Assembly: GCA_902797305.1 (NCBI GenBank)
Contig: CADBSK010000138.1
Coordinates: 18,185 to 82,184 of the forward strand
Direction of reading: 5' to 3'
Length of the DNA stretch: 64,000 bases
Origin: an uncultured Spirochaetaceae bacterium
GTDB taxonomy: Bacteria > Spirochaetota > Spirochaetia > Treponematales > Treponemataceae
Position numbers and translations under genes: made by a program. Each line of letters starts with the position of its first letter. Within the stretch, counting starts at the first letter, position 1. This document shows, in pieces, positions 10,571 to 43,704 of the stretch. The notes beneath the pieces were generated by a model. It ran no database searches, had not been told where the DNA came from, and was given only the letters and a program-made list of their open reading frames with translations.

Positions 10571-10593
10571 AACAGACCTCAGATATTATCTAA

Positions 10594-10752: not shown

Positions 10753-10781
10753 GTAATGCTATTCTTTTTTTAAGCAAGTAA

Positions 10782-13712: not shown

Positions 13713-13855
13713 GAAGTATCTCCTCACTTTTTCTATTAACTTCAATCTTCTTATTCTATTTTGCTTTTTAAAATAAAGCAAACTAATTTCGAGCATCTAT
13801 ATTTTTGATATCATCGCTCCATATGGCATCATGAATGTCAGTTCCTAAATTAATT

Positions 13856-16927: not shown

Positions 16928-16928
16928 C

Positions 16929-20603: not shown

Positions 20604-20858
20604 AATAACCAACTTTAAATAAAAAATATGATTAGATATAAACTTTTATACGCAATCATTAATTGTAGTTCACATATTTTCTGTAGTCAAATTTATTTAA
20701 AAACAAAACAAAAAAAAAGACCGAAAACTAACTCCGATTAATTATTTTTTGAATATGAGTTCTGTCATTCTTAGGAAATATTTCTTCACGAAGAATCTTT
20801 ATCGTCTTATATTGACAAAATACACCAAAAATGACATATTTCACCTAGAGGGTGTTTT

Positions 20859-26928: not shown

Positions 26929-28446
26929 CTATTTTAAGCGTGTTTCTATGCCTTTCAATTTTTGCTTCATTTCTTCATCTTGAGTAACAAGAAATATTGT
27001 TTCATTTAAGTCTTGACCTGTGGACCAGTAATCAGGATAAATACCTATGCCTTCGCCGTGCCAATTAGAAGACAGTGAAGGAAGAAGGTCCTTTTTAGCA
27101 CCTAATTGTAAACTAATTTTCGAATTTGGAAGAACATATTTACATATATCCATATAGGTACAACACCCAGCTGTATTTTCACCGATAACAATAACTTTAT
27201 CACTACCTAAGAATCTCTTTGCATTAAATATCAAATCTTCACTTACGCTTGCAGATTGCTTATCAACTATAATCAATAATTTACCATCAAATCCTTTTTG
27301 TTTATCTCTTAAATTAATTTTTATATTTTCAAAAAATTTTATTTGTGGATTCTCTTTCTGTTTTTTCAATTCCTTACAAATCTTTTTATAATAATATTTA
27401 TTCTGTTCTCCAGTTGATTGCAAATATGAAACTGTAGATTGAAAGTATCCAGGAGATTCCAGTTCTCTTCTCCTCACCATTTTTTTATTAAACCATTTAT
27501 CAATTCTTTTCTCATCCCTTATAAGATTTACTTTTCCACTCTCCTTAAACAGCGAATAAATAAACCCATTAGCGATATATGCTCTTCCGCCAAGATTAGA
27601 ACGTAAATCAATTATCACATTCTTTTTATCTCTCCAAGTAATACCTAAATTTGCAAATTTCTCAAAAACTATTTCGGCACCTTTTCTATACATTGATTTT
27701 TGTTCTGGTAAAACAAAACTAGATAAACTTGCATACCCTGTATTTTTAGTTTCAATTTCATGATACTTAATTAATGTAGAGCTTAAAAAATGCTTCTCTG
27801 CAGAAACATCTAGCTTCTGTTTTGTATTTTCAAATGAAAAATCAAAACAATTTATATCATTTTTACTTATAATACCTAAGCGATAAATATTTATTCCTTT
27901 TGAAGGGTAATAAAATAAATTATCCTTATCACCTGTATACATTTTCCCAAGACTTATATTTTCTCCGCCATTATCGACAACAAAGAAATAGCTATCATCT
28001 CTTTTTACATATACATTTGAAAAATAAACATTACTTTCCTTAAATAAATTATCGAATTCTTTTCCAGATTTTTTTTCTATACAAAAATGACCGTCTTCTG
28101 GATACGGACGCAAATAATCTGAAAGTTTTTTGTAAAAATCTCTAATGTTAATCTGAGTCTGAGCTCTATATAATTCTTCAAAATAAATTCGTAAATTATC
28201 AGGATTAAAACCTTTTTCAACAAAAATATCATATCCAATATACGATGTTTGAAGATAATATAATAATGCATCTATATCCTGCCCCATCTCATCAAATGTA
28301 ATAAAATTTTTCCGCTGTTCTGACTCCGTAGCAGATGGAATGTTTTTATATTCAACAGACTGGGAGAAAATTAGTCGTCGATTATCACCTGAAAAAACAA
28401 AATTATTTAAATACAAGGCTAATATAATGATAAAAAACTTTTTCAT
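26929..28446 (-). CDS. Secreted S41-family peptidase (paralog 4)
   Basis: Signal peptide; IIDLRSNLGG, DKQSASVSE, IGENTAG, GIYPD. Confidence 0.85.
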   Translation of the reverse strand: MKKFFIIILALYLNNFVFSGDNRRLIFSQSVEYKNIPSATESEQRKNFITFDEMGQDIDALLYYLQTSYIGYDIFVEKGFNPDNLRIYFEELYRAQTQINIRDFYKKLSDYLRPYPEDGHFCIEKKSGKEFDNLFKESNVYFSNVYVKRDDSYFFVVDNGGENISLGKMYTGDKDNLFYYPSKGINIYRLGIISKNDINCFDFSFENTKQKLDVSAEKHFLSSTLIKYHEIETKNTGYASLSSFVLPEQKSMYRKGAEIVFEKFANLGITWRDKKNVIIDLRSNLGGRAYIANGFIYSLFKESGKVNLIRDEKRIDKWFNKKMVRRRELESPGYFQSTVSYLQSTGEQNKYYYKKICKELKKQKENPQIKFFENIKINLRDKQKGFDGKLLIIVDKQSASVSEDLIFNAKRFLGSDKVIVIGENTAGCCTYMDICKYVLPNSKISLQLGAKKDLLPSLSSNWHGEGIGIYPDYWSTGQDLNETIFLVTQDEEMKQKLKGIETRLK

Positions 28447-28470
28447 ATGCTCCTCTCCATATTTTTATCT

Positions 28471-28659
28471 GTGCACTTTTTTTATAAACTTCAACGAAGC
28501 TATTTTCAGAGTTGATCAGACTCTGAGTATTTACATAAGTCTAGAAGAAATACCTTTCAATTTTTGCTTCATTTCTTCATCTTGTGTAACAAGAAAAATT
28601 GTTTCATTTAAGTCTTGACCTGTGGACCAGTAATCAGGATAAATACCTATGCCTTCGCC
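28471..28659. repeat. Cassette-junction repeat (S41 3' end, hairpin and conserved upstream motif)
   Basis: 28471-28638 is nearly identical to 30193-30359; its coding part also matches 26951-27057 and 35520-35626. Confidence 0.85.
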
Positions 28660-30018
28660 ATTCCAATAATCATATTTTTCTATCATTTTGTTTTTTGCAA
28701 AAGCAGTATTAATACCTGCTTTACTATTTGGCAAACAAATCGTAGCTACATCCCAATACATTGCTGAACCACTAGTATTCTCACCAATTACGGAAACACT
28801 TTCAGAACCAAAAATTTCTTTAGCCAGAGGAATTATAATTTCTCCTGCACTAGCAGAATTTCTGTCTGTCAAAATAATTATTTTTCCCTTAAATTTTGAC
28901 TCTTTTGAAAAGAGCTTTGATTTTTTATATCCTGCGGTTTCAATTACCTTTTCTGGATTTTCTATTTGACTGCTTAACAACGACACTTCTTTTTTTGAAG
29001 GTTTCTGGTTTCGATTATTTTTTAATAAGTATTTTGTCTTACAGCTCACTGGCGAAATTAAGTTTTCCCTCAGAGAAAAGGAATCAACAAACCATGAACT
29101 CATATTTGGTATCAACTTCGAAAAATCATTATTGTTCTTTCCAGAATACAAGACATAGAACATCGCTGCAGTATAAGCGGCATCTCCTCCTTCATTGGAT
29201 CTCATATCTAGAATAAGATTTTTTTTATTACCATACTTATATCCACACTCGATGAATTTATTAAAAATAATTTCCTTAGATTTCCGATCAGGAGAATCTA
29301 AATATGGAAGAAAAAATGTATTTAAAGCAATATACGCCGAATCCTTAGAGTCAAATGCTTTATATTTTGCATTTGTTTTTTCAATTGCTCCATCATTAAA
29401 AACTTCTAAACAATAGCTCTTATTATCAAAACTTACATCAATACTATTTAAAGGCTCTTTAGACAACTTAGCAATTCTATATACAGAAGAACCTTTTGAT
29501 GGGTAATAATACAAATTTTGTTGATCATCACAATATTTCAAATCAGGATTAATTCCCACAGTATTCGAAATAGAATAAAAATCCTCCCCTCTTTTTTCAA
29601 CATAACAATCTGTCCAATAACAGGTATATTTTTCAATCATTGTATAAATTTGTTTTTTTCCAATTAATTGAAAATGAGAATCTTTTATATAAGGTTTTAA
29701 GTTATCATTAAAAACTCGAATTAAATCATCTGTATAGATTACCTCTTTTCCTTCAAAATGAGTCATAACTGCATCTTTAAAAGATTTTTCATCAAAACCT
29801 TTATCAAGCATTTTATCATTTCCAGCATAACCCATATTTAAAACATACGACGTAAACTCTAAATCTTCTTTTAATTGTTCATACGAAATTTGCTCTTTGA
29901 CATATTTTTGATCTATAAAGAGTTCAATCTTATCATTAAAACTAATAATTTTCTGAGCCTGTAAAAAAAAACTGCTAGATAAACCTATAAAAACTAAAGC
30001 AACTAATCTCCTTTTCAT
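28531..30018 (-). CDS. Secreted S41-family peptidase (paralog 3)
   Basis: Signal peptide; ILDMRSNEGG, DRNSASAGE, IGENTSG, GIYPD. Confidence 0.85.
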   Translation of the reverse strand: MKRRLVALVFIGLSSSFFLQAQKIISFNDKIELFIDQKYVKEQISYEQLKEDLEFTSYVLNMGYAGNDKMLDKGFDEKSFKDAVMTHFEGKEVIYTDDLIRVFNDNLKPYIKDSHFQLIGKKQIYTMIEKYTCYWTDCYVEKRGEDFYSISNTVGINPDLKYCDDQQNLYYYPSKGSSVYRIAKLSKEPLNSIDVSFDNKSYCLEVFNDGAIEKTNAKYKAFDSKDSAYIALNTFFLPYLDSPDRKSKEIIFNKFIECGYKYGNKKNLILDMRSNEGGDAAYTAAMFYVLYSGKNNNDFSKLIPNMSSWFVDSFSLRENLISPVSCKTKYLLKNNRNQKPSKKEVSLLSSQIENPEKVIETAGYKKSKLFSKESKFKGKIIILTDRNSASAGEIIIPLAKEIFGSESVSVIGENTSGSAMYWDVATICLPNSKAGINTAFAKNKMIEKYDYWNGEGIGIYPDYWSTGQDLNETIFLVTQDEEMKQKLKGISSRLM

Positions 30019-30080
30019 TTCATCCCCACTCTAATTAAACCTCAGAAAGAATTAATTCAATCTGAGGTATTTTTTAAAAC

Positions 30081-30167
30081 TTATCTGCCGCCACCATAAA
30101 CGTGACCATCATCCCCACCTACTACAAGGTCAAGAACTTCTTCAGAAACTTCCAACAAAGTATTCAT
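30081..30167 (-). CDS. Double-glycine RiPP precursor F (28 aa): MNTLLEVSEEVLDLVVGG-DDGHVYGGGR
   Basis: Hand-translated; GGAGG RBS; leader matches the other five; downstream hairpin 30039-30068. Confidence 0.85.
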   Translation of the reverse strand: MNTLLEVSEEVLDLVVGGDDGHVYGGGR

Positions 30168-30192
30168 AGACACCCTCCATATAATTAATTTT

Positions 30193-30359
30193 GTGCACTT
30201 TTTTATAAACTTCAACGAAGCTTTATTCAGAGTTGATCAGACTCTGAGCATTTACATAAGTCTAGAAGAAATACCTTTCAATTTTTGCTTCATTTCTTCA
30301 TCTTGAGTAACAAGAAAAATTGTTTCATTCAAGTCTTGACCTGTGGACCAGTAATCAGG
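30193..30359. repeat. Cassette-junction repeat, second copy
   Basis: Near-identical to 28471-28638. Confidence 0.85.
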
Positions 30360-31760
30360 GAAGATACCAGCGCCCTCACCATACCAACAAGGATTATTTT
30401 CAAGATAATCATTTTTAGAAGAACATAAACTAATAGAAATACCTGTGTTAGGTAAATAATAATCCATCACATCCCAATATTTTGCACAACCACCTGAGTT
30501 CTCACCAATAACTATAACCTTATCAGGACCTATAATTTTTTTTGCTATAAGAACCATTGTCTCGCTTGCACTTAAAGTATTTCTATCTATTAGGAAAACA
30601 AGTTTGCCGTCATAGTTTGAAGAAAATTCAGTAGTTTTATTTTCAAGTGTTTGCGCAAAAGTATTTTTCTGCGGATTTTTCTGCATTTTTTTCATTTTCG
30701 TAACAAAAATTTTACCGTATGTAGTATTTAATTCATCTGTTATTTCAAATAATTTTAAATGTGCAAGAACTGTTGCTGGGGATTCTATTGTCGTAGTTTC
30801 AAAGTATGTAGAATCAAGAAATTTATACATTGTATTCTGTGTTTTATATGAAAATGCAGAATGCTTTTTATCATATAAAGACCAAATTGCATATTCCCCA
30901 TAAACAGCACGCCCCCCAACATTACTTCGTAAATCGATTATTATATTTTGCTTTTTATACCATTTGCTACCAATATTTGAAAATTTCTCAAGTACTAAAT
31001 CCGCCCCCTTTCTATATTTTGAATCTTCAGGAGGTAAAACAAAAGAAGAAAGACTCACATACACAGAACCTTTTGTTTCAATATCATGATATTTAATTGT
31101 AGGCGAATACTGAATAACACCATCGTCGTAAAGCTTTAAAGATATATTACCTTTGTTAAAAAGAAAGTCTTCATTACTTAACTCAGAACTTACAAATTTA
31201 CCTATTCGATATATAGAAGTACCTTTTGATGGATAATAAAACAAACATTTTTTATCACCTATGTATTCATCACCAACTTTTAAGTAAGAAGAATCTGTTT
31301 CACAGACATAATATTTGTTTTCATATTCGTTAACAAAGGTATTTGTTAATAAACAACTCAGATTTTTACAAGCAGATATTGCAAGCAATGCATTATGATC
31401 ATAAATTGTAAAATGACGATCTATTATATATTTAAACAGTACCTTATAAATATCCTCATATACATCTTTAGTAAAAATATTTTCTTGATTCTGGTACTTA
31501 TTCTTTATAAAACTGTCAATTTTTTCTTCATCATAACCATTTAATTTCATCTCTTCATATCCGACATAGGCTTGAGAAATATAATAAAAAAGAAAGTCTA
31601 GGTCATTTTCTAATTCCTTATAAGTTATGGTATTTTTTATATTCTTTGGCCAAACATAAATTTCTTTTAGCTGTGTCATTTCAGAATTTATTAGTTTTGA
31701 TGAAGAATAACTGTTAAACAAAGCTAGAGAAAATACAAAATATAAAATAATTTTTTTCAT
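30252..31760 (-). CDS. Secreted S41-family peptidase (paralog 2)
   Basis: Signal peptide; IIDLRSNVGG, DRNTLSASE, IGENSGG, GIFPD. Confidence 0.85.
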   Translation of the reverse strand: MKKIILYFVFSLALFNSYSSSKLINSEMTQLKEIYVWPKNIKNTITYKELENDLDFLFYYISQAYVGYEEMKLNGYDEEKIDSFIKNKYQNQENIFTKDVYEDIYKVLFKYIIDRHFTIYDHNALLAISACKNLSCLLTNTFVNEYENKYYVCETDSSYLKVGDEYIGDKKCLFYYPSKGTSIYRIGKFVSSELSNEDFLFNKGNISLKLYDDGVIQYSPTIKYHDIETKGSVYVSLSSFVLPPEDSKYRKGADLVLEKFSNIGSKWYKKQNIIIDLRSNVGGRAVYGEYAIWSLYDKKHSAFSYKTQNTMYKFLDSTYFETTTIESPATVLAHLKLFEITDELNTTYGKIFVTKMKKMQKNPQKNTFAQTLENKTTEFSSNYDGKLVFLIDRNTLSASETMVLIAKKIIGPDKVIVIGENSGGCAKYWDVMDYYLPNTGISISLCSSKNDYLENNPCWYGEGAGIFPDYWSTGQDLNETIFLVTQDEEMKQKLKGISSRLM

Positions 31761-31833
31761 ATATAAATGCCTAAAAGTATCTGACTGTTAAAAACAGCCA
31801 GATACTTATCTTTTGTCCTATAAAATTATAAGA

Positions 31834-32028
31834 TTAAAATCCTCCACAAAATACAGGAGTACCACCACCTGCAATAGTAGAACCAGTTCCTTGAAAACCT
31901 GTACCACTTTGATATCCATGACCAGCAGATGGATCTCCTCCAACAACATTCAATAATTCTTCTTCAGATAATTCAAACAGATTTCCGAATAAATTATTAA
32001 AACTTTCTTTTTTTAATGTTTTATTCAT
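31834..32028 (-). CDS. Double-glycine RiPP precursor E (64 aa): leader ..LFELSEEELLNVVGG, core DPSAGHGYQSGTGFQGTGSTIAGGGTPVFCGGF
   Basis: Classic ELSEEEL..VVGG leader; AAAGGA RBS before ATG 32028; downstream hairpin 31775-31807. Confidence 0.88.
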   Translation of the reverse strand: MNKTLKKESFNNLFGNLFELSEEELLNVVGGDPSAGHGYQSGTGFQGTGSTIAGGGTPVFCGGF

Positions 32029-32041
32029 TTTAATTCCTTTC

Positions 32042-32069
32042 ATAATTTAGAAGGCGCCTTCTAAATTAT
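32042..32069. promoter_or_regulatory. Perfect 28-bp palindrome upstream of precursor E
   Basis: ATAATTTAGAAGGC|GCCTTCTAAATTAT. Confidence 0.5.
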
Positions 32070-32152
32070 TTTCTTATTTTTTTTACTTTCATCCGAAAGC
32101 ATATTAAAAGACTCTGCGCAATAGTCTTTAATAATCTCATTTATTTATATTC

Positions 32153-33340
32153 TTACTTATTAATTAAACCCAGTTTAGTTAAAACAAAAATATACATTGG
32201 CTCTGTTCTAGAGATAATCTTACACTCTGCATTCATACCATTTATAAGTTCTATTTTTCTTTTATTACGTTTTTGTACAAAATACGACACGCTCAATTTC
32301 CCCTTTACAATATAACTCGTACTATCAAAATATTGGGAATCTTTTGAAATTTCAGAAACGACACCACCAATTCTTGAATACTCAGAAGATGGATATTTTG
32401 TAAAACTAATCGTAAAATTTTGCCCGCTTTTAATTTCTGCAATATCATCTGATGAAATATAAATATCAATATTTGGATTTTCAGTAGATTCAGGAATTAT
32501 TTTTGCTAGTATAGTATCCTCTAAAACAGAATCACCAATAACAGTCTTTTGAATTTCATCAATATACCCAGACACAGAAGCTCGGATTATAGTCTTTTCT
32601 AATTCATATTGATAATTTAATAAAGAAGACTTCTCATTTTGTATACTTTGATTTAGAGAAATTAATTTTTCAGAAACATCTTTCTTACTAGTAAAAACAT
32701 AATTTTTTAACTCCAATGAATCATCAAGCATTATTTTTTCATATTTTTCTAACTCCGCTTTACTTGTAAAACCTGGATATAGTTTTAATTCCCGTTCATA
32801 ATCCATTTTTGATTTTTCAGCACTTGCCTTTAATTGTTGTACTTTAGAAGAAAATGACTGTATTGCTGCATTACCTGATAATATGGCATCATTAACTTTA
32901 TTGTGCGTAATATAACTATCGATTATTGTTAGTAACTCATTATTATTATTGATTTCCGTGCTTAAACTCGCTATTCTTTTTTCAATAGAAATTATATTTT
33001 GCTTGATAGATTCATTCTTTAGCACATATAAAACTTGACCTTTTAAAACTTTTTGATTAGAAACAAATAACTTTTCTTCCAATACACCACTCGTAATAGG
33101 TACTATTTTTGAGATTTCTTCAGAAGGTCTTATCACCCCTTTTGCCCTTATTACAACATCATATGGCAAAAATATTACTAATAAAAATGAGAAAAGAACA
33201 ATTAATAAAACTGCGATAAATGATGATTTTATTATATCTGGTAACGACATCTCATAATATATTTTCGAAGCTGTTAATTCTTCTATACCAACAAACTTAA
33301 AAGAACAATTATCTTTATCTTTTTTAACCGAATCACTCAT
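32153..33340 (-). CDS. HlyD-family membrane fusion protein for peptide export
   Basis: N-terminal TM, VLKGQVLY, coiled coil, IRASVSGYI, GMNAECKII; adjacent to the C39 ABC exporter. Confidence 0.88.
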   Translation of the reverse strand: MSDSVKKDKDNCSFKFVGIEELTASKIYYEMSLPDIIKSSFIAVLLIVLFSFLLVIFLPYDVVIRAKGVIRPSEEISKIVPITSGVLEEKLFVSNQKVLKGQVLYVLKNESIKQNIISIEKRIASLSTEINNNNELLTIIDSYITHNKVNDAILSGNAAIQSFSSKVQQLKASAEKSKMDYERELKLYPGFTSKAELEKYEKIMLDDSLELKNYVFTSKKDVSEKLISLNQSIQNEKSSLLNYQYELEKTIIRASVSGYIDEIQKTVIGDSVLEDTILAKIIPESTENPNIDIYISSDDIAEIKSGQNFTISFTKYPSSEYSRIGGVVSEISKDSQYFDSTSYIVKGKLSVSYFVQKRNKRKIELINGMNAECKIISRTEPMYIFVLTKLGLINK

Positions 33341-33352
33341 ATTAATATCCTG

Positions 33353-35491
33353 CTACATATTCCAAAGTTTGTAATATAAACCTTTCAACCTTAAAAGTTC
33401 CTCATGAGTTCCTTTTTCCTCTATCTGCCCATTATTCATTACAAAAATTAAATCACTATTTACAATTGTCGAAAGCCTGTGAGCAACTGTAATTGTAATA
33501 ATCTTATTATCACCCAGCTCATCCACGACTTTTTGAAATTCTCTTTCACTAACAGTATCCAAAGCACTTGTGGCTTCATCTAACAAAAGAATTTTCGGAC
33601 AAGATAACAATGCTCTTGCAAGAGCAATACGCTGTCGTTCCCCACCACTTAAAGAAGAACCTCTTTCACTTATTTTTGAAAAATATTTATCTGGAAGATT
33701 TTCTATAAAAGTTGACGCTTGAGCTTTTTCACAGGCATTTTTTACATCTTCCAAAGAATATTCTGATCTACCCATTGTAATATTTTCATATATTGTTCCA
33801 CTAAACAAATACACTTCTTGAGGTACATAGCCTATAGAACTTCTTAAATAATCCGCTGATATATCATTCAAGTTTTGTCCCGATATTGTTATTGAACCAT
33901 TCTCAATTGAGTAAAATTTTAAAAGTAATTTCATAATAGTAGACTTACCACAGCCTGATGCTCCAACAAAAGCAATTTTATGATTATTATCTGTTGTAAA
34001 AGATAAATTTTCAAAAACAGGGTGTCTTACTCCATATCTGAAAGTCACATTATTAAATTCTATCGGTACTGATATATCTTGATTATCCACCGAAATCTGC
34101 TGATCACTATTTAATTTTTCTTTTTCTAGTTCAAAAATCTCACCAATTCTCTCTGCAGAAACCACAGCTTCTTGAATTTGCGGTTGAAAATCAATAAAAC
34201 GATTTAATGGGCCTGTAAAAAATGCTGATAAAGTATTAAAACTTATTAATTGTCCAAGGCTAAGTTTATCTTTTAAGATTAAATATCCACCAATCCAGAA
34301 AATTAAATTTACACTCAAGCCTGAAAGAAAATTTGTAAATAACTCTTTTATATTACCTTTATTCCAAGCCTCCTGTTGCAAATCTACATATTGAACAAGA
34401 TTCTCTTCATATTTTTGGGCAGAATATTCATGAGCATTTAAGCTTTTAATTACATGAAGTCCTGAAAACATTTCTATAAGGAAGGAATTTATTGAAGCTT
34501 TATGTCTTAACTGTTCTCTATAATTTTTAATAAAAAACTTTGAAAAACAATAAATAATTATGCTTGATAGAACAAATATAGAAATTAAAATCAAAAATAA
34601 GCTTAAATTTGAAATTGCTAAATAGATTCCAATAAAAAACATTATTACGAAATCCAAAATCGTACCAAACGCAATATTCGAAAATGCCAATCGAATTTTT
34701 TCACTATCATCAAAACGGCTTATTATTTCACCTGTTTGTCTCGAATCAAAGAAATCCACCGGTAATCTTAAAATATGCTTAATATAAGACATTGATAAAG
34801 AAATATCAGTCTTTAAGGAAAACAATCTTAAAAATTGAGAGCGTATAATCGTTAAAACACTTGTAAAAAAAGACAAAAAGACCGCTATCAAACTCAATGA
34901 ATGTAACGTTGTTATCGCTTTTGCACCTACCACATCATCAATAAAAAACTGAAAATATAATCCGCTACAAATGCCAATCAGACTTAAAAGTAAAGATGCA
35001 ACAAACATTAAAATCACAAATCTAATATGCGGTTTTATTAATGGTAAAAATTTTAATAATTTATTCTGTCCTTTGTTTATCTTAAAATCAGGTGTGGGTG
35101 ATACAAGTACAGAATAACCACTCCAAATCTTAAGAAAATCTTCCCTTCTATATTTGATTTTACTTCCTGCAGGATCAGCCACGTATACTTTTTTTTCTGA
35201 AATTTTATAAACTACAACAAAATGATTCCAACCAGCCTCATAAACAACATGAGCTATAAAAGGCACAGGAAATTCTCCATTTAATACTTCAGAATTTCCT
35301 TTAACTGCCTTTGCATCAAGACTTAAATTCTTACAAGCTTGTAATATGCCTCTTAAAGACGTACCGTTTCTGTCAGTACCAGCTATTTTTCGTATTTGAG
35401 TAATTGAATTATAACTTTTATAATATCGGCAAATCATTGCGATGCAAGCCGCACCACAATCGTTACCGTCAAATTGTTTTATTAATTTCAT
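33353..35491 (-). CDS. Peptidase-containing ABC transporter (C39 peptidase, TMD, ATPase)
   Basis: QFDGNDCGAAC, HFVVV, ADP (Cys-His-Asp); Walker A GASGCGKST; LSGGERQR; DEATSALD. Confidence 0.95.
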   Translation of the reverse strand: MKLIKQFDGNDCGAACIAMICRYYKSYNSITQIRKIAGTDRNGTSLRGILQACKNLSLDAKAVKGNSEVLNGEFPVPFIAHVVYEAGWNHFVVVYKISEKKVYVADPAGSKIKYRREDFLKIWSGYSVLVSPTPDFKINKGQNKLLKFLPLIKPHIRFVILMFVASLLLSLIGICSGLYFQFFIDDVVGAKAITTLHSLSLIAVFLSFFTSVLTIIRSQFLRLFSLKTDISLSMSYIKHILRLPVDFFDSRQTGEIISRFDDSEKIRLAFSNIAFGTILDFVIMFFIGIYLAISNLSLFLILISIFVLSSIIIYCFSKFFIKNYREQLRHKASINSFLIEMFSGLHVIKSLNAHEYSAQKYEENLVQYVDLQQEAWNKGNIKELFTNFLSGLSVNLIFWIGGYLILKDKLSLGQLISFNTLSAFFTGPLNRFIDFQPQIQEAVVSAERIGEIFELEKEKLNSDQQISVDNQDISVPIEFNNVTFRYGVRHPVFENLSFTTDNNHKIAFVGASGCGKSTIMKLLLKFYSIENGSITISGQNLNDISADYLRSSIGYVPQEVYLFSGTIYENITMGRSEYSLEDVKNACEKAQASTFIENLPDKYFSKISERGSSLSGGERQRIALARALLSCPKILLLDEATSALDTVSEREFQKVVDELGDNKIITITVAHRLSTIVNSDLIFVMNNGQIEEKGTHEELLRLKGLYYKLWNM

Positions 35492-35497
35492 TTTAAT

Positions 35498-37006
35498 TTA
35501 CTTTAAGCTAAATTCTATGCCTTTCAATTTTTGCTTCATTTCTTCATCTTGAGTAACAAGAAATATTGTTTCATTTAAGTCTTGACCTGTGGTCCAATAA
35601 TCAGGATAAATACCTACACCTTCACCATGCCAAATTGAGCAACTACTTAAAAATTTTAAATGTTCAGAACCTAAGTGTAATCTTAATTTACTTTCTGGCA
35701 GTAGATAATCATATATCTCACCATATTCCAAACTACCATACGAATTTTCCCCAATTATAATAATGCATTCATTACCAAAAATTTTCTTAGCAAAGACAGG
35801 AAACAATTCTGCCGCGCTAATAGAATTTCTATCTATCAAAAAAATTAACTGTTTGTCCCTTAATGGTGATGATATCCATTTACTTTCCGTATTACGATAC
35901 CAATAATTTATCTTTGGATTTTTCTTATGTTCTTTTAATATTCTTAAAGCATCTCTTTTATGATATTTTGAATTTTCTACTTCGTAGTTATTTATAAAAT
36001 TAAATTTAGCAGTAGCGATAACTGGAGAATCTATAAATTGTTTTTCGAAAAAATTATCTTCAAAAAACAAGTCCATCTTCTTTGTAAATTTTTCAAATTT
36101 CTTTTCGCTTATAAATGTGTTATATAAAAAAGTTTCTATACTATTTAGTTCTCCTCCCTTATTTCCTCTTAAATCAATTACAATATTTTTTTTATTTTTC
36201 CATTCTTGTGAAAGATTTTCAAATTTACTAAAAATAATTTCTGCACCCTTTCTTGTATTTGATTTTTTATGTGGAAACAAAAAACTAGAAATACTCACAT
36301 ACCCAGTCCTATCAGTTTCTATTTGATGATATTTAATTCCAAAACCTGAATCAATGTTTCCATCATCATACACTGGCATTTTTATTTTATTACCATTAAT
36401 TTCAAATTCAGCAGAGTCAATCCGCTTATCAGAAAGCACACCCAAACGATATACATTTTTTCCTTTTGCAGGATAATAAAATACATTTTCCTCTGATAAA
36501 GAAAATGAAGCCCCTTTATAAAATTTATCAAAATCTGATTCAATCAAATAATATTCATTATTCTTCTTTTCAAAAAAAGTATTAGTCCACAAAATTAACC
36601 TTTTTTTAGTTATGTAGTAATTTTCATTTGAAAGATTAGCCGAAATTGAAAAATGTCCATCTTTCACATAAAAAGCTAAATATTCAGAAATATCTTTCAT
36701 TAATTGTCTGGTATTTACGTTTTCTACACCAGTATATTTTTCTGTCAAAAAAATCTTAAATTTTTCTTCTTCAAATCCTTTCTGCCTCATTGAGTCATAA
36801 CCTGCATATGCAGATTTAAGGTAATAACAAATATAATCAATATCCTTCAATAATTGTTCATATGTTATTTCAGAAAGGCCTTTACTAAATTCATTCGGGA
36901 AATAACATTCTTTGATTTCACATTGTTCAGAATATAGAAGAGTATCATTTGCAAAAGTATTAAAACTCACGAAAAGCAATAAAAAAATTGAAATTACTTT
37001 TTTCAT
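35498..37006 (-). CDS. Secreted S41-family peptidase (paralog 1)
   Basis: Signal peptide; VIDLRGNKGG, DRNSISAAE, IGENSYG, GIYPD. Confidence 0.85.
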   Translation of the reverse strand: MKKVISIFLLLFVSFNTFANDTLLYSEQCEIKECYFPNEFSKGLSEITYEQLLKDIDYICYYLKSAYAGYDSMRQKGFEEEKFKIFLTEKYTGVENVNTRQLMKDISEYLAFYVKDGHFSISANLSNENYYITKKRLILWTNTFFEKKNNEYYLIESDFDKFYKGASFSLSEENVFYYPAKGKNVYRLGVLSDKRIDSAEFEINGNKIKMPVYDDGNIDSGFGIKYHQIETDRTGYVSISSFLFPHKKSNTRKGAEIIFSKFENLSQEWKNKKNIVIDLRGNKGGELNSIETFLYNTFISEKKFEKFTKKMDLFFEDNFFEKQFIDSPVIATAKFNFINNYEVENSKYHKRDALRILKEHKKNPKINYWYRNTESKWISSPLRDKQLIFLIDRNSISAAELFPVFAKKIFGNECIIIIGENSYGSLEYGEIYDYLLPESKLRLHLGSEHLKFLSSCSIWHGEGVGIYPDYWTTGQDLNETIFLVTQDEEMKQKLKGIEFSLK

Positions 37007-37070
37007 AAAAACCCCATAACAGTCGGAATGAAAAGGGCCCGTTTCATTCCGACAATATTAAATATTATTT

Positions 37071-37166
37071 TTAGTTACCAGCGTGGCAATAAGGAGCGCA
37101 ACATCCGCCCATAACTTCATCAAGCATCTCTTCAGATACTTCAAGAATAGCAACTGTATTTTTCAT
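37071..37166 (-). CDS. Double-glycine RiPP precursor A (31 aa): MKNTVAILEVSEEMLDEVMGG-CCAPYCHAGN
   Basis: Hand-translated; GGAG RBS; downstream hairpin 37022-37053. Confidence 0.85.
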   Translation of the reverse strand: MKNTVAILEVSEEMLDEVMGGCCAPYCHAGN

Positions 37167-37275
37167 TTTTTCTCCATAGTATTTAATATAAAGTACTTTT
37201 TACTGAATCAACGATTCATTTTTATATTGATCATGATCTCAATAATTTTTGAATTATTGATTATATTTTTTATAT

Positions 37276-37377
37276 TTATCTTCCGAATGGACCCGCATAT
37301 GGTCCAAAATAAATACCACCAGAAATTTCATCCAAACATTCTTCAGAAACTTCCAATAGTAAACTATTTTCAAGCAT
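37276..37377 (-). CDS. Double-glycine RiPP precursor B (33 aa): MLENSLLLEVSEECLDEISGG-IYFGPYAGPFGR
   Basis: Hand-translated; GGAGGT RBS; downstream hairpin 37239-37260. Confidence 0.85.
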   Translation of the reverse strand: MLENSLLLEVSEECLDEISGGIYFGPYAGPFGR

Positions 37378-37531
37378 AAAAACTACCTCCCTTTTTATTA
37401 TCTTGTGCACATTTTTATAAACTTCAACGAAGTTATTCATGAAGTTACACAAACTTCTCGTATCAATTAATAAATATTTTTAACAAGTAGAATTTAATCT
37501 TTCTTGTTAAAAGACCAATAAGAATATTTAT

Positions 37532-37657
37532 TTACCGTGCTGGAAGTCCGCCGTAACCGACACAATAACCTCCGGTAATTTCATCCAAATCTTCTCCTGT
37601 TACTTCTAACAAAAGATTAATTATACAACTATTAATCTTCTCTTTTAATTCTTTCAT
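37532..37657 (-). CDS. Double-glycine RiPP precursor C (41 aa): MKELKEKINSCIINLLLEVTGEDLDEITGG-YCVGYGGLPAR
   Basis: Hand-translated; GGAG RBS (alternative ATG at 37672); downstream hairpin 37477-37512. Confidence 0.85.
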   Translation of the reverse strand: MKELKEKINSCIINLLLEVTGEDLDEITGGYCVGYGGLPAR

Positions 37658-37740
37658 TTCATCGTTCTCCATTTTTTCAAAATTCTCAAGAAAGTTATAC
37701 AGTTCTCAGGTAATTAGAGAACTGTATATTTCACAAACAA

Positions 37741-37869
37741 TTATCGGCTCGGACAACCATAACAAGGCCCCAAACCTAATCCACCAGAAACTTCATCCAA
37801 ATCTTCTCCGGTTACTTCTAACAAAAGATTTATAACGTAATCATTAATCTTCTCTTTTAGTTCTTTCAT
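37741..37869 (-). CDS. Double-glycine RiPP precursor D (42 aa): MKELKEKINDYVINLLLEVTGEDLDEVSGG-LGLGPCYGCPSR
   Basis: Hand-translated; starts 1 nt after the rSAM stop with an AGGAGG RBS; downstream hairpin 37696-37728. Confidence 0.87.
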   Translation of the reverse strand: MKELKEKINDYVINLLLEVTGEDLDEVSGGLGLGPCYGCPSR

Positions 37870-37870
37870 C

Positions 37871-38992
37871 CTATTTTCCTCCTTTAATTAATCTATAATG
37901 ACACCTGCAAGGTTCTGATTTCATATCAGAATGCAAATGAATACCATTACCTAAACAACTCTTCCACTGTTTACAATGCTTACACTGCCCAACCTTTGCC
38001 CATTCACGATTACGCATATTTGTAAATTGATTTTCCCATATATCAGAAAAGTACTCAGTATAAATATTGCCTTGAATAAAATCCTTATTTCTAATGCTTA
38101 AACACCCCGTTACATCCCCATTACACATAACAGAAGCCACATGAACACCCGCTATACAGAAAAAGAAATTCTTTCTTACTTTTCGTTCATATCTTCCTAA
38201 ATATCCTTCACATGAGTATGAACAAGAAATCTTTTTATCATTGCTGTTTTTAAATGTATTTGTTTCAGCAATAAAATCTAGTAGTTGTGTATATTTTTCA
38301 AAAGATAATTTAATACCAGTTTTTGACGCACGCCCTTCTGGCCAAATGGAAAAAATCCTCCAAAATTCTACATTTTTATCAAATAAATAATTTCGTATTT
38401 TTTCCAAATTTTTAAAATTTTCATCATGCACACATGTAATCACATCATATAAAAACTTTGGATTCTTTTTACTTTGTTTAACAATAAAATCAATAGCCTT
38501 ACTAACATTTTCAAAACTTTTCGGATTTCGTCGCAAATAATTATGGTCTTCTTCCAAACCATCTAGAGAAACACTTATTGATAACATTCCTGCAGATACT
38601 AACGAATTAAACCTTTCCTCTGTTAAAAAAAGCCCATTAGTAACAATACCCCATGAAAAACCTCTTTTAACAATCTCTCTTCCTACATCTTCCAAATCTT
38701 TTCGTAAAAGAGGTTCCCCTCCCGTGATACAAACAAAAAGTTTCTTGTCGGGATTATTCTTTTTTATATCATCCAAAACTTTAATAAAGTCCTCTTTTGG
38801 CATATCTTTAACAGAAGAATCAGAAAGACAATCACTACCACAATGCAAACAAGAAAGATTACATCTCAAAGTACATTCCCAAAACAAATAAGTTAATTCA
38901 TGTTCTTTTATAGCTTTATCTCTTAGTTTAAAAAATAATCTTTTAGTCAAATACTCTTTAATAATTGTATTACTCACTTTTTTACACCTCAT
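37871..38992 (-). CDS. Radical SAM/SPASM peptide maturase (TIGR04133-like, splicease-related)
   Basis: LFWECTLRCNLSCLHCGSDC (CxxxCxxC), TGGEPL, SLDG; SPASM CIAG..NGDVTGCLSIR..QGNIY..CKHCKQWKSCLGNG. Confidence 0.85.
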   Translation of the reverse strand: MRCKKVSNTIIKEYLTKRLFFKLRDKAIKEHELTYLFWECTLRCNLSCLHCGSDCLSDSSVKDMPKEDFIKVLDDIKKNNPDKKLFVCITGGEPLLRKDLEDVGREIVKRGFSWGIVTNGLFLTEERFNSLVSAGMLSISVSLDGLEEDHNYLRRNPKSFENVSKAIDFIVKQSKKNPKFLYDVITCVHDENFKNLEKIRNYLFDKNVEFWRIFSIWPEGRASKTGIKLSFEKYTQLLDFIAETNTFKNSNDKKISCSYSCEGYLGRYERKVRKNFFFCIAGVHVASVMCNGDVTGCLSIRNKDFIQGNIYTEYFSDIWENQFTNMRNREWAKVGQCKHCKQWKSCLGNGIHLHSDMKSEPCRCHYRLIKGGK

Positions 38993-38997
38993 TATTT

Positions 38998-40209
38998 TTA
39001 TATTTCAAAATAGTTTTGTTTTCTTTTTAATAATTTATATGAATTCTCTATTCTTTCAGTGAAATCACAGCTTTTTTTATTATCATGAACACACCCCCCA
39101 TTACATTGATTCTTAATACAACATTTATCACATTTTTTATTTGAATACGAATCAGAAGTCAAATAAAAGTATTCAACTTCAGGGTTTATATTTTTCATTT
39201 TTTTCAAATCAAAAACTGATTTTTCAGCTTGCCCTAAATCATTCCAGCATTTTAGCATGTTACCATACCAATCAACTATATAAGTCTGTGCTTTTTGCGC
39301 ACTACACATAAAACAACTAGAAACTTTTTTCAAATAGTCCCTTTCATAAAAATTAAGTTGATTATCATATTTTAGTATTTCGAGGAATGATTCTTCATCC
39401 GATACTTCATTACTAATCTTATTCTGACAAGAAAAGAGATCAGTTTCTTTGGTAATATCCACCTTAAAAAAACTCCCATATCTTTGCAGGAAATAATTTC
39501 TCAGCTTTTGAATATCTTTAATATTGTTATCATTGACCTCAAATAAAATAGTAATAACGGGCGTATAAAAATTTGTCTTAAAGAAATTAAAAATTAATTC
39601 GCACTTATCCAAAAGTTTAATTAACTCAGATTTATTAGAAAAAATTGTTGCATGTATTAAAAATTGTAGATTATTTACACGCAAATCTTTAGTTATTCTT
39701 AATTCGCCTTCGCTTAATCCTAAGGTATTAGTTATAATTCCGTTATATACAATAATTCTTTTTGACTCTAATTCTTTTGTTAATTTTTCAATTAATAACG
39801 CTGTCTTATCAAAGTCTAATATATTCCAGTAGAATCTTATAATTTTTTGATTTTTTCGTTCACAAAATAGAACAAGTCTATCTAAGAACTCCTCACTAAT
39901 AATTATTCCACTTTTATTTTCAGGACAAACATAAATAGTTAAAACACTACTAAGCTGTTTTTTTAGCATTCGATAATTTCTGATTCTCTCAAAATCATCA
40001 GTTGTTTTATCTGATACAACTTCTATATTTTGTAGTTTTTCTAATAAACTATGATTTAAGTCTTCCTTTGAAGCTATAAAGTTTTCGATATTATTTCTTT
40101 CATCTTCAGTTATCTCAATAAATACACCCGTCTCTCCGGCATATAACACCCAAGACTTGTCCGAAGCAAATACTTTATTATGTTTATTCCACCAATATTT
40201 CGCACTCAT
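38998..40209 (-). CDS. Pseudo-radical SAM protein: RRE-like N-terminus, no CxxxCxxC, retained SPASM
   Basis: LTIYVCPENKSG sits where CxxxCxxC is expected; C-terminal CSA..YIVDWYGNMLKCW..KCDKCCIKNQCNGGC..C. Confidence 0.72.
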   Translation of the reverse strand: MSAKYWWNKHNKVFASDKSWVLYAGETGVFIEITEDERNNIENFIASKEDLNHSLLEKLQNIEVVSDKTTDDFERIRNYRMLKKQLSSVLTIYVCPENKSGIIISEEFLDRLVLFCERKNQKIIRFYWNILDFDKTALLIEKLTKELESKRIIVYNGIITNTLGLSEGELRITKDLRVNNLQFLIHATIFSNKSELIKLLDKCELIFNFFKTNFYTPVITILFEVNDNNIKDIQKLRNYFLQRYGSFFKVDITKETDLFSCQNKISNEVSDEESFLEILKYDNQLNFYERDYLKKVSSCFMCSAQKAQTYIVDWYGNMLKCWNDLGQAEKSVFDLKKMKNINPEVEYFYLTSDSYSNKKCDKCCIKNQCNGGCVHDNKKSCDFTERIENSYKLLKRKQNYFEI

Positions 40210-41671
40210 TTTCTAACTCTCTCTTCATGTATAAACTTGTAAATATATTATTTGAAAATCCAAGTATATAATCTTGTTCTGTTTTATAATAAGAATCAAT
40301 TTTTAATTCAGGACTATTTATCCAGAATTTTTCATACAAATCCTCATCAAAACTTGAAATCTTTGATAATTTTACAGGTATTTCAGAAATATCAATATCT
40401 TTATAGATATTTTGACCATAAGGCCATGCCGTTTTTTCATTTAATTTTCTATCATATAATGGAATTATCGAAGATATTTTTTCTACAAAAATATCAAAGA
40501 TCTTTTTATTTATCTGATTCGATTGTTCAGAAGTTATTATTTTCATTTCAACTGCACATAGCAAGCATGCATGAACAAGACTTCCGATAAATTGTGCAAA
40601 GAAATTTTTACCACTTTCTTCTCTTGCTGATAAATTAGAGTATAAAGAAGTTCTATCTAACCTATTCCTACAATATTCTTTCCAATCTTCCGGAAACAAA
40701 AATGGAAAACGCGCACGATCTAAGCTAGTTATATCAAAATCTCGATATACAACACGCCCTGTAAATTTCCAGTCCTTTGAAATTTCAATTAAAGTATTCT
40801 GACAATGACATTCAAGAGATATACCAAATCGAGAAAAAATCTCAAAAAACTTTTCAAAAATTGGCATTATAAAATCATTTATAAAAAAATCCTCAAATTC
40901 TTTACCTGAAGCCAAATATATTTTTTGAAAATAACAATCATTTTTGTCAACAACAGAAGTTAACGATACAATACTATAAATTGCAGTTCCTTCATTATCA
41001 TCAAAAATATTATCAAGACGTCTGATTACATTACCAAAACTTTTAATCTTATTAGGACCATAAGTGATATTATACTTTTTAGAAAAATGAATTGGATAAT
41101 CACCTGTTATTCCAAAAGCACCAATATCTTTTAATATAGAAAAATCATCTATCTTACTAACAATGTTTGCAGTACATTTTGAAAAGAAAAACTGACCATC
41201 TGCAGAAGTCCAGTCAATCTGGCGGGCACCATTAGCAACATTACCAAAAATGGAAACCTTAACAATAAAATATTCACTTGTATAAATATTTTTTACAACT
41301 AAAGATCTATAAGATGACGTTGGTGTAGCCTCAAATATAGATTTCTCTGGAGATATAAATTCATACTTATCCGCAATCCAATCTGTAAATATTTTTTCTG
41401 AAGTTGGATGAACAAAAAATGGATAATAAACAGAACCTTTTCGCTCTATAAAAATATGCTTCTCAAAAAATCCTTTTTGAGTTTCATCAATTTGTATTTT
41501 ATCTTTGCCAAAAGGGATCAAAAAATATCCAATTTTAAATACATTTTGACTTGATGGTTTATATTCTTCTGGAATATCCAATATAAATGAAATAGAATTG
41601 TCATTCTTATAAAGAGAATAATTATTTTTTACTTGCTCTGAATAAATAAACTTTTCTAATTTAACTCTCAT
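40184..41671 (-). CDS. IucA/IucC (NRPS-independent siderophore synthetase)-like protein
   Basis: FFVHP, ATPTSSYRSL, VKVSI..VANGAR, GISLECHCQNTLI, VVYRDFD resemble NIS synthetase motifs. Confidence 0.72.
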   Translation of the reverse strand: MRVKLEKFIYSEQVKNNYSLYKNDNSISFILDIPEEYKPSSQNVFKIGYFLIPFGKDKIQIDETQKGFFEKHIFIERKGSVYYPFFVHPTSEKIFTDWIADKYEFISPEKSIFEATPTSSYRSLVVKNIYTSEYFIVKVSIFGNVANGARQIDWTSADGQFFFSKCTANIVSKIDDFSILKDIGAFGITGDYPIHFSKKYNITYGPNKIKSFGNVIRRLDNIFDDNEGTAIYSIVSLTSVVDKNDCYFQKIYLASGKEFEDFFINDFIMPIFEKFFEIFSRFGISLECHCQNTLIEISKDWKFTGRVVYRDFDITSLDRARFPFLFPEDWKEYCRNRLDRTSLYSNLSAREESGKNFFAQFIGSLVHACLLCAVEMKIITSEQSNQINKKIFDIFVEKISSIIPLYDRKLNEKTAWPYGQNIYKDIDISEIPVKLSKISSFDEDLYEKFWINSPELKIDSYYKTEQDYILGFSNNIFTSLYMKRELENECEILVE

Positions 41672-41705
41672 CTTATACTACTTTAAAATAATCTACTTTA
41701 TATTA

Positions 41706-42114: not shown

Positions 42115-43704
42115 CTAATTAGTCTTTTTCCAGATATTAAAGTTTGTTCCACTTGTAAACAGCTCATATGAAGAAGCGTTCTGATTAGCGCTCATATCGT
42201 AAGTTGCACCGAGATTTACGACAAGGCTACCATTTGTGCCAGTAACTTCTGCAAGATACATTGAAGAATCAGTTTCACCCCAAATTGTTACAGCACTTGT
42301 ATCACTGATGCCAATTTCTTTACGAAGCTCTATAAGTTTTTTTATGTAATTACGATAAGTCATGCTGGTTCCAGGAACGGTATTACCACCAATGTACTGA
42401 CTTGCATTATTACTTACGGTTGTGTCATAACTTTCTTGAGCGGTAAAATAATGCTGCCATGCAACACATGGAACGCCAGGATGAGTCATAATAAAGGCAT
42501 AAGCTGTACCAACATCCTCAGGATCCAGATACCAAAGCGCTTGAGTCGAACCTGTATCGTGATTATCAACAAAAGTTACTACACTTTCTGGCATTTTTAT
42601 ATAACCGCAGTATTCATTTTTAAGAAGATCGTAATTATTGTTACTAACTCCAGAAGCACTGCAACCAAAAACTGTGTTCAACATACCTTTTGTAACAAAG
42701 TCAAATACTCGTGAACCACTTGGAGTATAAGTACGCCCATCAATTTTATTATCTTCACTTGAAGTAGCTTGAACCCAGGCTTCAAACTGATCACTCCATG
42801 CTTTAGGATTTTCAGAAGAAAAACCATCTGTCGGCCAGTGTTCACCTACAGAAAATTCTGCTTCTGTCTTTGCATTGTAATACCCAATATAGCGGCCATT
42901 AAATCCCTTTACAAAATCATAACGCCACCCCACAAATCCGCAGGCCTTAAGCTTGTCTGTCATCCAGGTTACAATACCATCCTGAACATCAAAATTGGTG
43001 TGATCAAGATCTCGTGCAGAAGTATAATTTTCTCCAGTATCAGCATTTCCCTTATTTGACGAACCGTACATATCGCTTGAACTATCTGTAAAGCCTTCAT
43101 CATCTGAACAGATTGCATAATAATCTGCACAGAAAGAAGGATTTGTAAAAGTTCCCCAGTTACTTGTTCCTACACGATGATTAATTACAATATCGCAAAT
43201 GGCTTTTGCCGGACTAATACTAGAAATTGCAGTTTTAAGTTCATCAGGAGTTCCATAGAATGAATATAAATTGTTAAGTTCTCGAGGCATATAACCATTA
43301 TCAGAACCACTATCCTCTGCAGGAGGAAACCATACATATGTAAAAGTATCTTTAATTTCTGATGCATTCGCCGTTACAACATCATACCAGTCTTTGCTAC
43401 CAGATGGAGAATTATTGTCATAGGTTCCCTTTATCCAGTTAGCCTCTGCTTCATCCCCATAATATCTGTCATGAAAATTAGAAGACCAATTAAATCCCTG
43501 GAGCAGAACTATTGTATCTGTAGTATCAGTTGTATCAGTAGTATCACCTGTATCTGTAGTATCACCATTATCAGTTGTATCACCTGTATCAGTTGTATCT
43601 GTTGTTTGGTCTGTTCCTGTAGAATTGGGATTCTGTGTATCTCCTACACAACCCGCAAAAATAAAAGCTAATGAACACAGCAGAGTCAAAATAATCTTCT
43701 TCAT
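42115..43704 (-). CDS. GH13 alpha-amylase lipoprotein with Asp/Thr repeat tether
   Basis: Lipobox FAGC; LLQGFNW, DIVINHR, GWRYDFVKG, VGEHW, FVDNHDTG. Confidence 0.88.
   Translation of the reverse strand: MKKIILTLLCSLAFIFAGCVGDTQNPNSTGTDQTTDTTDTGDTTDNGDTTDTGDTTDTTDTTDTIVLLQGFNWSSNFHDRYYGDEAEANWIKGTYDNNSPSGSKDWYDVVTANASEIKDTFTYVWFPPAEDSGSDNGYMPRELNNLYSFYGTPDELKTAISSISPAKAICDIVINHRVGTSNWGTFTNPSFCADYYAICSDDEGFTDSSSDMYGSSNKGNADTGENYTSARDLDHTNFDVQDGIVTWMTDKLKACGFVGWRYDFVKGFNGRYIGYYNAKTEAEFSVGEHWPTDGFSSENPKAWSDQFEAWVQATSSEDNKIDGRTYTPSGSRVFDFVTKGMLNTVFGCSASGVSNNNYDLLKNEYCGYIKMPESVVTFVDNHDTGSTQALWYLDPEDVGTAYAFIMTHPGVPCVAWQHYFTAQESYDTTVSNNASQYIGGNTVPGTSMTYRNYIKKLIELRKEIGISDTSAVTIWGETDSSMYLAEVTGTNGSLVVNLGATYDMSANQNASSYELFTSGTNFNIWKKTN
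43513..43606 (-). repeat. Coding tandem 9-bp repeats encoding a DTT/DTG/DNG linker
   Basis: TTDTTDTGDTTDNGDTTDTGDTTDTTDTTDT. Confidence 0.8.

Follow-up and report, generated by a model that had tools for sequence, protein, structure and literature searches.

Does a radical SAM enzyme whose family ordinarily accompanies lipoproteins, and which here lies among genes for small exported peptides, excise tyramine from those peptides? The locus that raises this question lies in a window of 64,000 nucleotides (the whole stretch of DNA that was analysed) from an uncultured Spirochaetaceae bacterium. A sequence-only reading had likened the enzyme, encoded at 37871..38992 on the minus strand, to tyramine-excising spliceases and had pointed to three neighbouring peptide cores with X-Tyr-Gly.

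Family and phylogenetic position of the enzyme

The enzyme gene is an intact open reading frame (ORF) for 373 aa, and both motifs claimed for it are found there: residues 37-53 are FWECTLRCNLSCLHCGS and the SPASM region holds FCIAGVHVASVMCNGDVTGCLS. Cysteines 40/44/48, 261, 279, 297, 337, 340, 346 and 364 are invariant throughout our alignment, and the hallmark of spliceases, CxxxCxxC (C40/44/48) together with SPASM cysteines 279, 297, 337, 340, 346 and 364, is present. The Pfam domains are PF04055 and PF13186. Over its whole length the protein scores 457.9 bits for TIGR04133 (rSAM_w_lipo; curated cut-off 425) and is a full member of a family that it had been said to resemble. The runner-up scores are 113 bits for NirJ2, 112 for TIGR04053, 106 for AhbD, 104 for MftC, 97 for TIGR03913 and 94 for TIGR04103; that the two splicease-side families come last in this ranking tells against the splicease reading. 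It falls short of the cut-offs for TIGR04103, the type I or PlpX family (94.4 versus 725 bits), for TIGR03913, the GDL motif maturases (97.4 versus 591.75), and for sactipeptide and ranthipeptide maturases (PapB 66.6 versus 340, StsB 64.5 versus 625). From family score, domains, predicted structure and trees we regard it as a TIGR04133 radical SAM/SPASM enzyme and a candidate splicease.

In a 52-row tree the enzyme falls inside a 16-row clade of same-genus TIGR04133 copies (support 100/99), which are 53-62% identical to it; in a 36-row tree its nearest relative is the enzyme of genome G073 (98/89), whose partner protein has ACYGVP. TIGR04133 was sister to the TIGR04103/TIGR03913 side in all three trees: at 95/90 with 52 rows, at SH-aLRT 95 in a quick 26-row tree under a mixture model, and at 97/94 with 36 rows that included AhbD, AhbC-like, NirJ, MftC, TIGR04053 and TIGR04347 sequences. 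The rows on that side were annotated members of TIGR04103 and TIGR03913, PlpX and RhaX themselves not being among them. The enzyme is ~25% identical to members of these two families, and in the alignment it has in common with the PlpX side HCGS and a Gx(Y)(L/Y)GxYE segment, both of which MftC and TIGR04053 are without. By the trees, it stands next to the known spliceases and not among them, in a sister position rather than nested. The kinship proposed by the sequence-only reading thus survives the phylogenetic check that it had asked for, since a sister position on the splicease side is not the grouping away from spliceases that it had named as contrary evidence.

The predicted structure (pLDDT 88.7) has an N-terminal helix, residues 6-30, that is absent from TIGR04103 and Agathobacter-type sequences. 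The activating helix of spliceases is described as being supplied by the Y protein or by the leader (PMC11414181); no PlpY-like gene was seen with this enzyme, and our guess from the model is that helix 6-30 might play this role. Profile and Foldseek searches of the PDB returned generic SPASM enzymes only, with no splicease among the matches. A predicted complex with the precursor A1 scored 0.07 against a mark of 0.32, which is evidence neither way. Of 150 alignment columns that at least 90% of 61 relatives conserve, the enzyme departs from consensus at 14 (the median relative at 3, and one relative at more), and these changes may reflect new specificity, new chemistry or decay. It sits on a long branch in the trees, and the GC content of its gene, 30.2%, is the lowest among 62 same-genus copies (median 42.8%). 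That the frame and its cysteines are intact despite this fits long retention within an AT-rich cassette, and the low GC and long branch suggest that the acquisition was not recent.

Our literature search found no paper on TIGR04133 by name and no member with a tested reaction, the key survey by Scott 2022 lying outside its reach; TIGR04134 was named once in the literature found, in a review of type IX secretion. Among the substrates in that survey (Scott et al. 2022, Chem 8:2659) there are reportedly proteins of Bacteroidota. Should TIGR04133 belong to its types, the splicease chemistry becomes likelier and the novelty at family level lower, and recruitment still stands. The papers covered by the search give five splicease types with 27 confirmed and 939 predicted systems, all taken from that survey (PMC11414181, PMC11626197, PMC10533398, PMC9811515, PMC10849128, PMC11002830, PMC10885120, PMC8326336).

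Lipoprotein partners of the family and precursors at this locus

The best argument for the family's reaction, absent from the sequence-only reading, is that its normal lipoprotein partners bear a conserved XYG(x)P. In three scans, 75/79, 55/62 and 52/70 TIGR04133 genes were flanked by a lipoprotein-like ORF in which YG lies no more than 40 residues from the Cys (182 of 211 when pooled), counts that overstate independence because the loci are akin and the search pattern lets in some shadow ORFs, while it also overlooks some real partners. Among control lipobox-like ORFs more than 2.5 kb from TIGR04133 genes, 5 of 49 had YG. Seven same-genus genes were scored as lacking a partner; L164 and L160 do have one on inspection, L084, L155, L179 and L188 lie at contig ends, and L165 has none. 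Over 175 distinct partner motifs the residue before Tyr is Met in 33%, Cys in 23% and Glu in 23%, Pro stands at +3 in 65%, and no second conserved residue suited to a crosslink was found. Cys leads in this genus, at 54% of 46 motifs.

The family, a large one in gut Bacteroidota and spirochaetes, exceeds its cut-off in 60 of 338 genomes of this genus and occurs in an estimated 5,700 or so stored metagenome stretches. The earlier statement that these enzymes normally pair with Bacteroidetes lipoproteins is right about the pairing and too narrow about the hosts. In most same-genus partners (L001, L059 and L102 among the loci) the predicted lipobox Cys is itself the residue X of XYG (LTS-C-YG), so that one residue would serve as both lipid anchor and splice site. 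At L103 (G022:C8) and L159-L160 (G143:C44) two TIGR04133 genes lie in tandem or close together, one of them having as partner a secreted protein with XYG and no lipobox Cys. In the natural fusion P0250 a TIGR04133-related domain is preceded by three Val-Tyr-Gly repeats; this counts in favour of splicing, and the protein is, from its sequence, possibly a self-modifying enzyme. DUF1843 precursors beside TIGR03913-side enzymes (L275, L280, L281) keep Tyr, often without Gly, and LYA, MYA and MYM occur there alongside PYG and LYG.

At our locus six double-glycine precursors, A1 to A6, all lie in 30081-37869 on the minus strand, and a six-frame scan found their leader pattern nowhere else in the 2.53-Mb assembly. 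The leaders, of 18-37 aa, follow LxE(V/L)(S/T)xExLxx(V/I)xGG, and the cores have 10-12 aa except that of A5, with 33. The ATG of A1 (37741..37869) lies 2 bases past the stop of the enzyme gene, and its core, LGLGPCYGCPSR, contains Cys-Tyr-Gly-Cys-Pro. A2 (37532..37672) has the core YCVGYGGLPAR, with Gly-Tyr-Gly, behind a leader copied from that of A1 (81% DNA identity). The remaining cores are IYFGPYAGPFGR in A3 (37276..37377), with Pro-Tyr-Ala-Gly-Pro; CCAPYCHAGN (PYC) in A4 (37071..37166); a GYQ core in A5 (31834..32043); and DDGHVYGGGR (VYG) in A6 (30081..30167). Tyr is thus in 6/6 cores and Tyr-Gly in 3/6.

The three X-Tyr-Gly cores on which the sequence-only reading relied are indeed present, yet their number is no more than chance would give and its own argument is therefore weak: shuffled Gly-rich cores contained a mean of 2.04 YG cores, with P(≥3)=0.33, and A1 and A2 both had YG with P=0.12 (A4 was entered one residue short in this test). 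We dropped the count as evidence. Among the precursors A1 is the most likely substrate and A2 a likely one. A1 carries the commonest same-genus partner site, Cys-Tyr-Gly-x-Pro, and its five residues Cys-Tyr-Gly-Cys-Pro are the same as in the partners at L162 and L164; CYGxP arose in shuffles of the A1 core with P 0.008, for a pattern picked after seeing the data. A search of the 338 genomes with A1 returned this genome and one weak match inside a 284-aa frame only. The Pro of A2 stands at +4 instead of +3, and A6 lacks one. PlpXY is reported to accept GYG when engineered (PMC10533398), and known spliceases to skip some XYG sites, such as DYG of RcsA (PMC11626197).

Of the non-YG sites that the enzyme had been thought possibly to accept, PYC and GYQ do not hold up: G342, a genome without TIGR04133, has a homologue of A5 and a core identical to that of A4, so these cores are probably not substrates and were set aside. 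They are best assigned to the NIS-fold protein and pseudo radical SAM of the base cassette described below. Cores from enzyme-free cassettes, a small sample, contained YG in 0/7 cases against 1.6 expected. The one credible non-YG candidate is A3, whose Pro-Tyr-Ala-Gly-Pro is possibly the family motif with Ala for Gly; the LYA and MYA of TIGR03913-side precursors, whether modified or not, offer a parallel. For A6 as a substrate linked to the enzyme the results are mixed: in run X3 its leader is followed by 30 loose letters, ten residues without Tyr, and in run X13 a contig aligns over 29700-30105, a stretch of 406 bases that takes in the VYG codons and has 10 differences, mostly at unlisted places, where cover over the enzyme is almost nil, which is no proof of absence.

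The base cassette and the module within it

The whole cluster (26929-41671, minus strand) has a GC content of 28.6%, against 37-38% in its flanks and 36% in the genome, and is transcribed in the order NIS-fold protein, pseudo radical SAM, enzyme, A1-A4, S41 peptidase, transporter, HlyD, A5, S41, A6, S41, S41. The first gene (40184..41671) encodes a 495-aa protein with an IucA/IucC (NIS synthetase) fold (Atlas 0.97; Foldseek matches to NcdF, DesD and AcsD at E 2e-13 to 2e-12 and TM 0.50-0.58; model pLDDT 90) and no Pfam or NCBIfam match. It shares its fold with the NIS synthetases IucA/IucC, DesD, AcsD and NcdF; unlike them it sits in peptide-export cassettes, being 10-16% identical to solved enzymes, and inspection of the neighbours, rather than a family scan, recognised no siderophore gene near these cassettes. 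From the model it is likely an ATP-dependent peptide ligase of the base cassette; among the titles and abstract starts covered by our literature search, no NIS-fold enzyme acting on GG peptides was found. The second gene (38998..40209) encodes a 403-aa pseudo radical SAM, a likely scaffold, in which the CxxxCxxC loop is deleted and the SPASM cysteines are kept (SPASM TIGR04085 33.9 versus 27; radical SAM fold in Atlas). Its homologues in G342:C9 and G020 retain CxxxCxxC, and a metagenome scan with it as query gave no matches.

Export is provided for by a C39 peptidase-containing ABC transporter, or PCAT (33353..35491; TIGR01193 576 versus 524; PF03412), and an HlyD-type adaptor (32153..33340; TIGR01843 108 bits, under the cut-off of 209). 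A C39-ABC transporter with GG leaders hydrophobic at -4, -7 and -12 agrees with the double-glycine leader rule given for PCATs (PMC10885120). Four S41 peptidases complete the cluster, after A4 (35498..37006; PF03572, serine motif, hydrophobic N-terminus), after A5 (30252..31760; PF03572), after A6 (28531..30018; PF03572) and at its end (26929..28446; the motif, and repeat families D1-D5 common to the other three). The nisin resistance protein is likewise an S41 peptidase (PMC4698656), and the serine motif in the cassette resembles TASSAE; unlike that protein's gene, the S41 genes here alternate with precursor genes. By this analogy they may be immunity or processing enzymes; they are older than the enzyme's arrival with A1 and A2, and their being targets of a ketoamide product is speculation.

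This RiPP-like cassette of NIS-fold protein, radical SAM, GG precursors, S41, PCAT and HlyD recurs at L126, L128, L130-L132 and L135, its radical SAM being active in G342:C9 and G020 and without CxxxCxxC in the window, G342:C14 and G354. The literature search found no description of a cassette with an NIS-fold protein, dead radical SAM, S41 and PCAT. Short ORFs at L131 (4237-4836) and L135 (1514-2206) have a beginning that resembles the NIS-fold protein and an end that resembles the pseudo radical SAM, which suggests internal deletions fusing both genes in decaying copies of the cassette. In the window a 47-nt element stands before A3 and A6 and, in part, before S41 gene 4 (37386-37432, 30174-30220, 28452-28482), S41 3' ends (28478-28680, 30199-30401) are up to 91% alike, and an X13 contig joins these places; precursor-S41 units thus seem to be shuffled by recombination. 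A promoter scan gave 28 sites against 32 in shuffles, and no terminator-like site was found. RNA run X18, a library that may contain DNA, has contigs over A6, A5, A4-A3-A2, A1 and the 3' end of the enzyme gene, and the run that holds 0.99 of the window is labelled bovine gut metagenome. Going by the names borne by the nearest homologues, the host is probably a Treponema-like gut spirochaete. Nearby, on the same strand, a run of very large lipoprotein-like genes (2161-20612) encodes proteins of 900-1230 aa, one or more of them with an alpha-amylase-like region, and a lipoprotein alpha-amylase (42115-43704) lies just upstream of the cluster; together these probably make up a locus for surface starch use.

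The enzyme, A1 and A2 occupy a swappable module of 1605 bp (37391..38995). A sister strain has 275 other bases instead: the X3 contig (3579 bp) aligns to 36784-37390 and to 38996-41689, with 275 bases replacing the 1605. Because the three genes are skipped jointly, they were gained or lost together; given the tree, gain is the simpler reading, and the X3 arrangement may have arisen by a secondary exchange. Parts of the enzyme gene were also found in three further studies: those from X6 (2 differences in 238 bases) and X18 (15 differences) reach across into A1, and that from X8 covers 225 bases of the gene. Outside this assembly's own study, a copy that is 94% identical carries the leader of A1. 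In X3 and X13 the A3 core has five listed single-base gaps, which affect both of its Tyr codons, and in X18 it is ungapped; one X13 contig passes from A3 into an S41 3' end. These comparisons cover 7 of the 22 listed runs.

No lipoprotein partner is adjacent to the enzyme, so the locus does not show the TIGR04133/TIGR04134 pairing. The best TIGR04134 score in the genome is 13.9 bits against a cut-off of 39.8, and neither a profile of 60 same-genus partners nor a lipobox-XYGxP pattern found anything relevant in the assembly, which is 87% complete, so that a distant partner could be missing. Conversely, none of 237 other retrieved TIGR04133 loci, some of which overlap and which total 2.25 Mb with a median length of 9.2 kb, has a C39, HlyD, S41, NIS-fold, pseudo radical SAM or GG-leader ORF, and none of 80 metagenome loci holds another recruited copy. 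The NIS-fold protein matches 7 of the 338 genomes, that of the window included, and enzyme-free cassettes are found at G342:C14, G342:C9, G354:C25, G020:C88 and G344:C10. That at G342:C14 has an NIS-fold protein (72%), pseudo radical SAM (46%), A5 homologue, S41, core identical to A4, S41, PCAT and HlyD, in a genome (90% complete) where nothing exceeds 77 bits for TIGR04133. G354 has its cassette on one contig and an ordinary TIGR04133-lipoprotein pair on another. Clusters at 90% identity have five members for the NIS protein, three for the pseudo radical SAM and one for the enzyme.

The recruitment to exported GG peptides that had been suggested is thus supported by the missing lipoprotein partner, the joint module and the 0/237 other loci. 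Comparative sequence evidence, resting for this arrangement on one species-level lineage, indicates that the enzyme was recruited with A1 and A2 from a lipoprotein setting to a peptide-export cassette. With the TIGR04133/TIGR04134 pair (NCBIfam hypothetical equivalogs) it shares its place among same-genus copies and, in A1, the partners' site; it differs in having no lipoprotein partner and, as neighbours, GG peptides of 42-46 aa, PCAT, HlyD, S41, the pseudo radical SAM and the NIS-fold protein.

Proposed reaction and competing explanations

By analogy with PlpX, we put at roughly 60% the probability that the enzyme excises tyramine at the X-Tyr-Gly of A1 and A2. In the PlpX reaction the Tyr is removed except for C1, which is joined to the preceding carbonyl (PMC9811515, PMC11002830), and the mass change of spliceases is defined as a net loss of C8H9NO that gives an alpha-keto-beta-amide. 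We infer that TIGR04133 would perform this reaction with A1 (Cys-Tyr-Gly) and A2 (Gly-Tyr-Gly) as substrates. The enzyme would generate a 5'-deoxyadenosyl radical, as PlpX does, and all of the Tyr but C1 would be excised and C1 joined to the preceding carbonyl, with a predicted change of -135.068 Da (A1 core 1221.563 to 1086.495; A2 core 1154.554 to 1019.486). The A1 product would be a keto-beta-Cys and that of A2 an aminopyruvate unit. The C39 PCAT would then cut after GG and, with HlyD, export both as alpha-keto-beta-amide peptides, which would presumably inhibit serine or cysteine proteases; ketoamide spliceotides are reported to inhibit elastase, chymotrypsin and cathepsin B, their unspliced forms not (PMC11626197). 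PlpXY modifies its site without a leader (PMC11414181, PMC10533398), which makes the switch plausible: a borrowed GG leader followed by a short XYGxP core could suffice.

Known spliceotide systems offer partial likenesses. The type I systems PlpX/PlpY/PlpA and PcpXYA on the TIGR04103 side (PMC11414181, PMC10533398, PMC11002830, PMC9811515) have a radical SAM/SPASM enzyme of the sister clade and XYG in a leader-core precursor, and spliceotides also use PCATs (PMC10885120); our enzyme differs in its 94 bits against a cut-off of 725 and in having no PlpY and no Nif11 or NHLP leader. The type II binary spliceases RhaX, RcsX and RasX of Rheinheimera, whose ketoamide products inhibit serine and cysteine proteases (PMC11626197, PMC11414181), and the TIGR03913 GDL-motif maturases resemble ours in being two-component systems with no Y protein. 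From these it is set apart by clade and host phylum, by a TIGR03913 score of 97 bits against 592 and by the lack of a DUF1843/GDL precursor.

We consider it fairly unlikely, though likelier than the other rivals, that the enzyme targets the same Tyr with another chemistry, forming a C-C or C-S crosslink (-2 Da) or carrying out decarboxylative or side-chain cleavage, so that the splicease motif is shared and the reaction is not. TIGR04133 is, after all, a separate, long-branched clade at ~25% identity to the PlpX side in which our search found no tested reaction; 14 conserved columns are changed here, and A1 has Cys on both sides of its Tyr-Gly. Yet the partner motif (M/C/E-Tyr-Gly-x-Pro) is built like the tested splice sites, which include MYG and LYG with GYG accepted by PlpXY (PMC11414181 supplement, PMC10533398), the 175 motifs offer no second conserved residue for a crosslink, and HCGS and the Gx(Y)(L/Y)GxYE segment, common to the enzyme and the PlpX side, are missing from MftC and TIGR04053. 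It is very unlikely that the enzyme substitutes for the cassette's dead radical SAM by making thioether rings of the sacti or ranthi type on all Cys cores, whatever their Tyr context. The ancestral radical SAM is intact beside Cys-rich cores in G342:C9 and G020 and dead in the window, where A1, A2, A4 and A5 contain Cys; but the scores for such maturases are weak (PapB 67 versus 340, StsB 65 versus 625), A4 and A5 persist in G342:C14 beside a dead radical SAM with no replacement, and the residue before Tyr in most partner motifs is Met or Glu, not Cys.

The enzyme might also be a passenger that recombination brought into a shuffling cassette and that is now decaying, or else works on a lipoprotein whose gene is elsewhere, the YG of A1 and A2 being coincidence. 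This we hold to be unlikely. The shuffle probability of 0.12 for both cores, the long branch with its 14 changed columns, the dispensable module and the 87% completeness of the genome speak for it; they are countered by the intact frame with its cysteines, by A1 starting 2 bases after its stop and travelling with A2 and the enzyme, by the 94%-identical copy with the A1 leader elsewhere, and by the lack of any TIGR04134 over cut-off, partner-profile or lipobox-XYGxP match in the assembly. Tyramine excision at A1 and A2 is the reading that we prefer. An extended form of it, which we rate a long shot, is that a captured lipoprotein-splicing enzyme arms secreted peptides with a ketoamide against the S41 immunity proteases of rivals, with specificity widened to Tyr-Ala (A3, with a changed core in the two strains in which this site has no module), and that the hybrids are also modified by the NIS-fold ligase on a dead radical SAM scaffold. 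No description of RiPP chemistry by such a ligase and scaffold was found in the literature search.

What is new here is the recruitment of TIGR04133 to secreted GG peptides, in kinship with known splicease and lipoprotein systems. Lipoprotein precursors are awkward to assay, and with peptides of 42-46 aa that have no lipoprotein signal the TIGR04133 reaction would become testable. If the proposed reaction is true, A1 and A2 would serve as a natural splice tag of very small size, one of whose sites, Gly-Tyr-Gly, belongs to the type employed in bioorthogonal labelling (PMC10533398). The locus shows, at strain resolution, a modifying enzyme that has changed its substrate class, and the host cassette, with its NIS-fold protein and pseudo radical SAM, could be the site of a new RiPP reaction.
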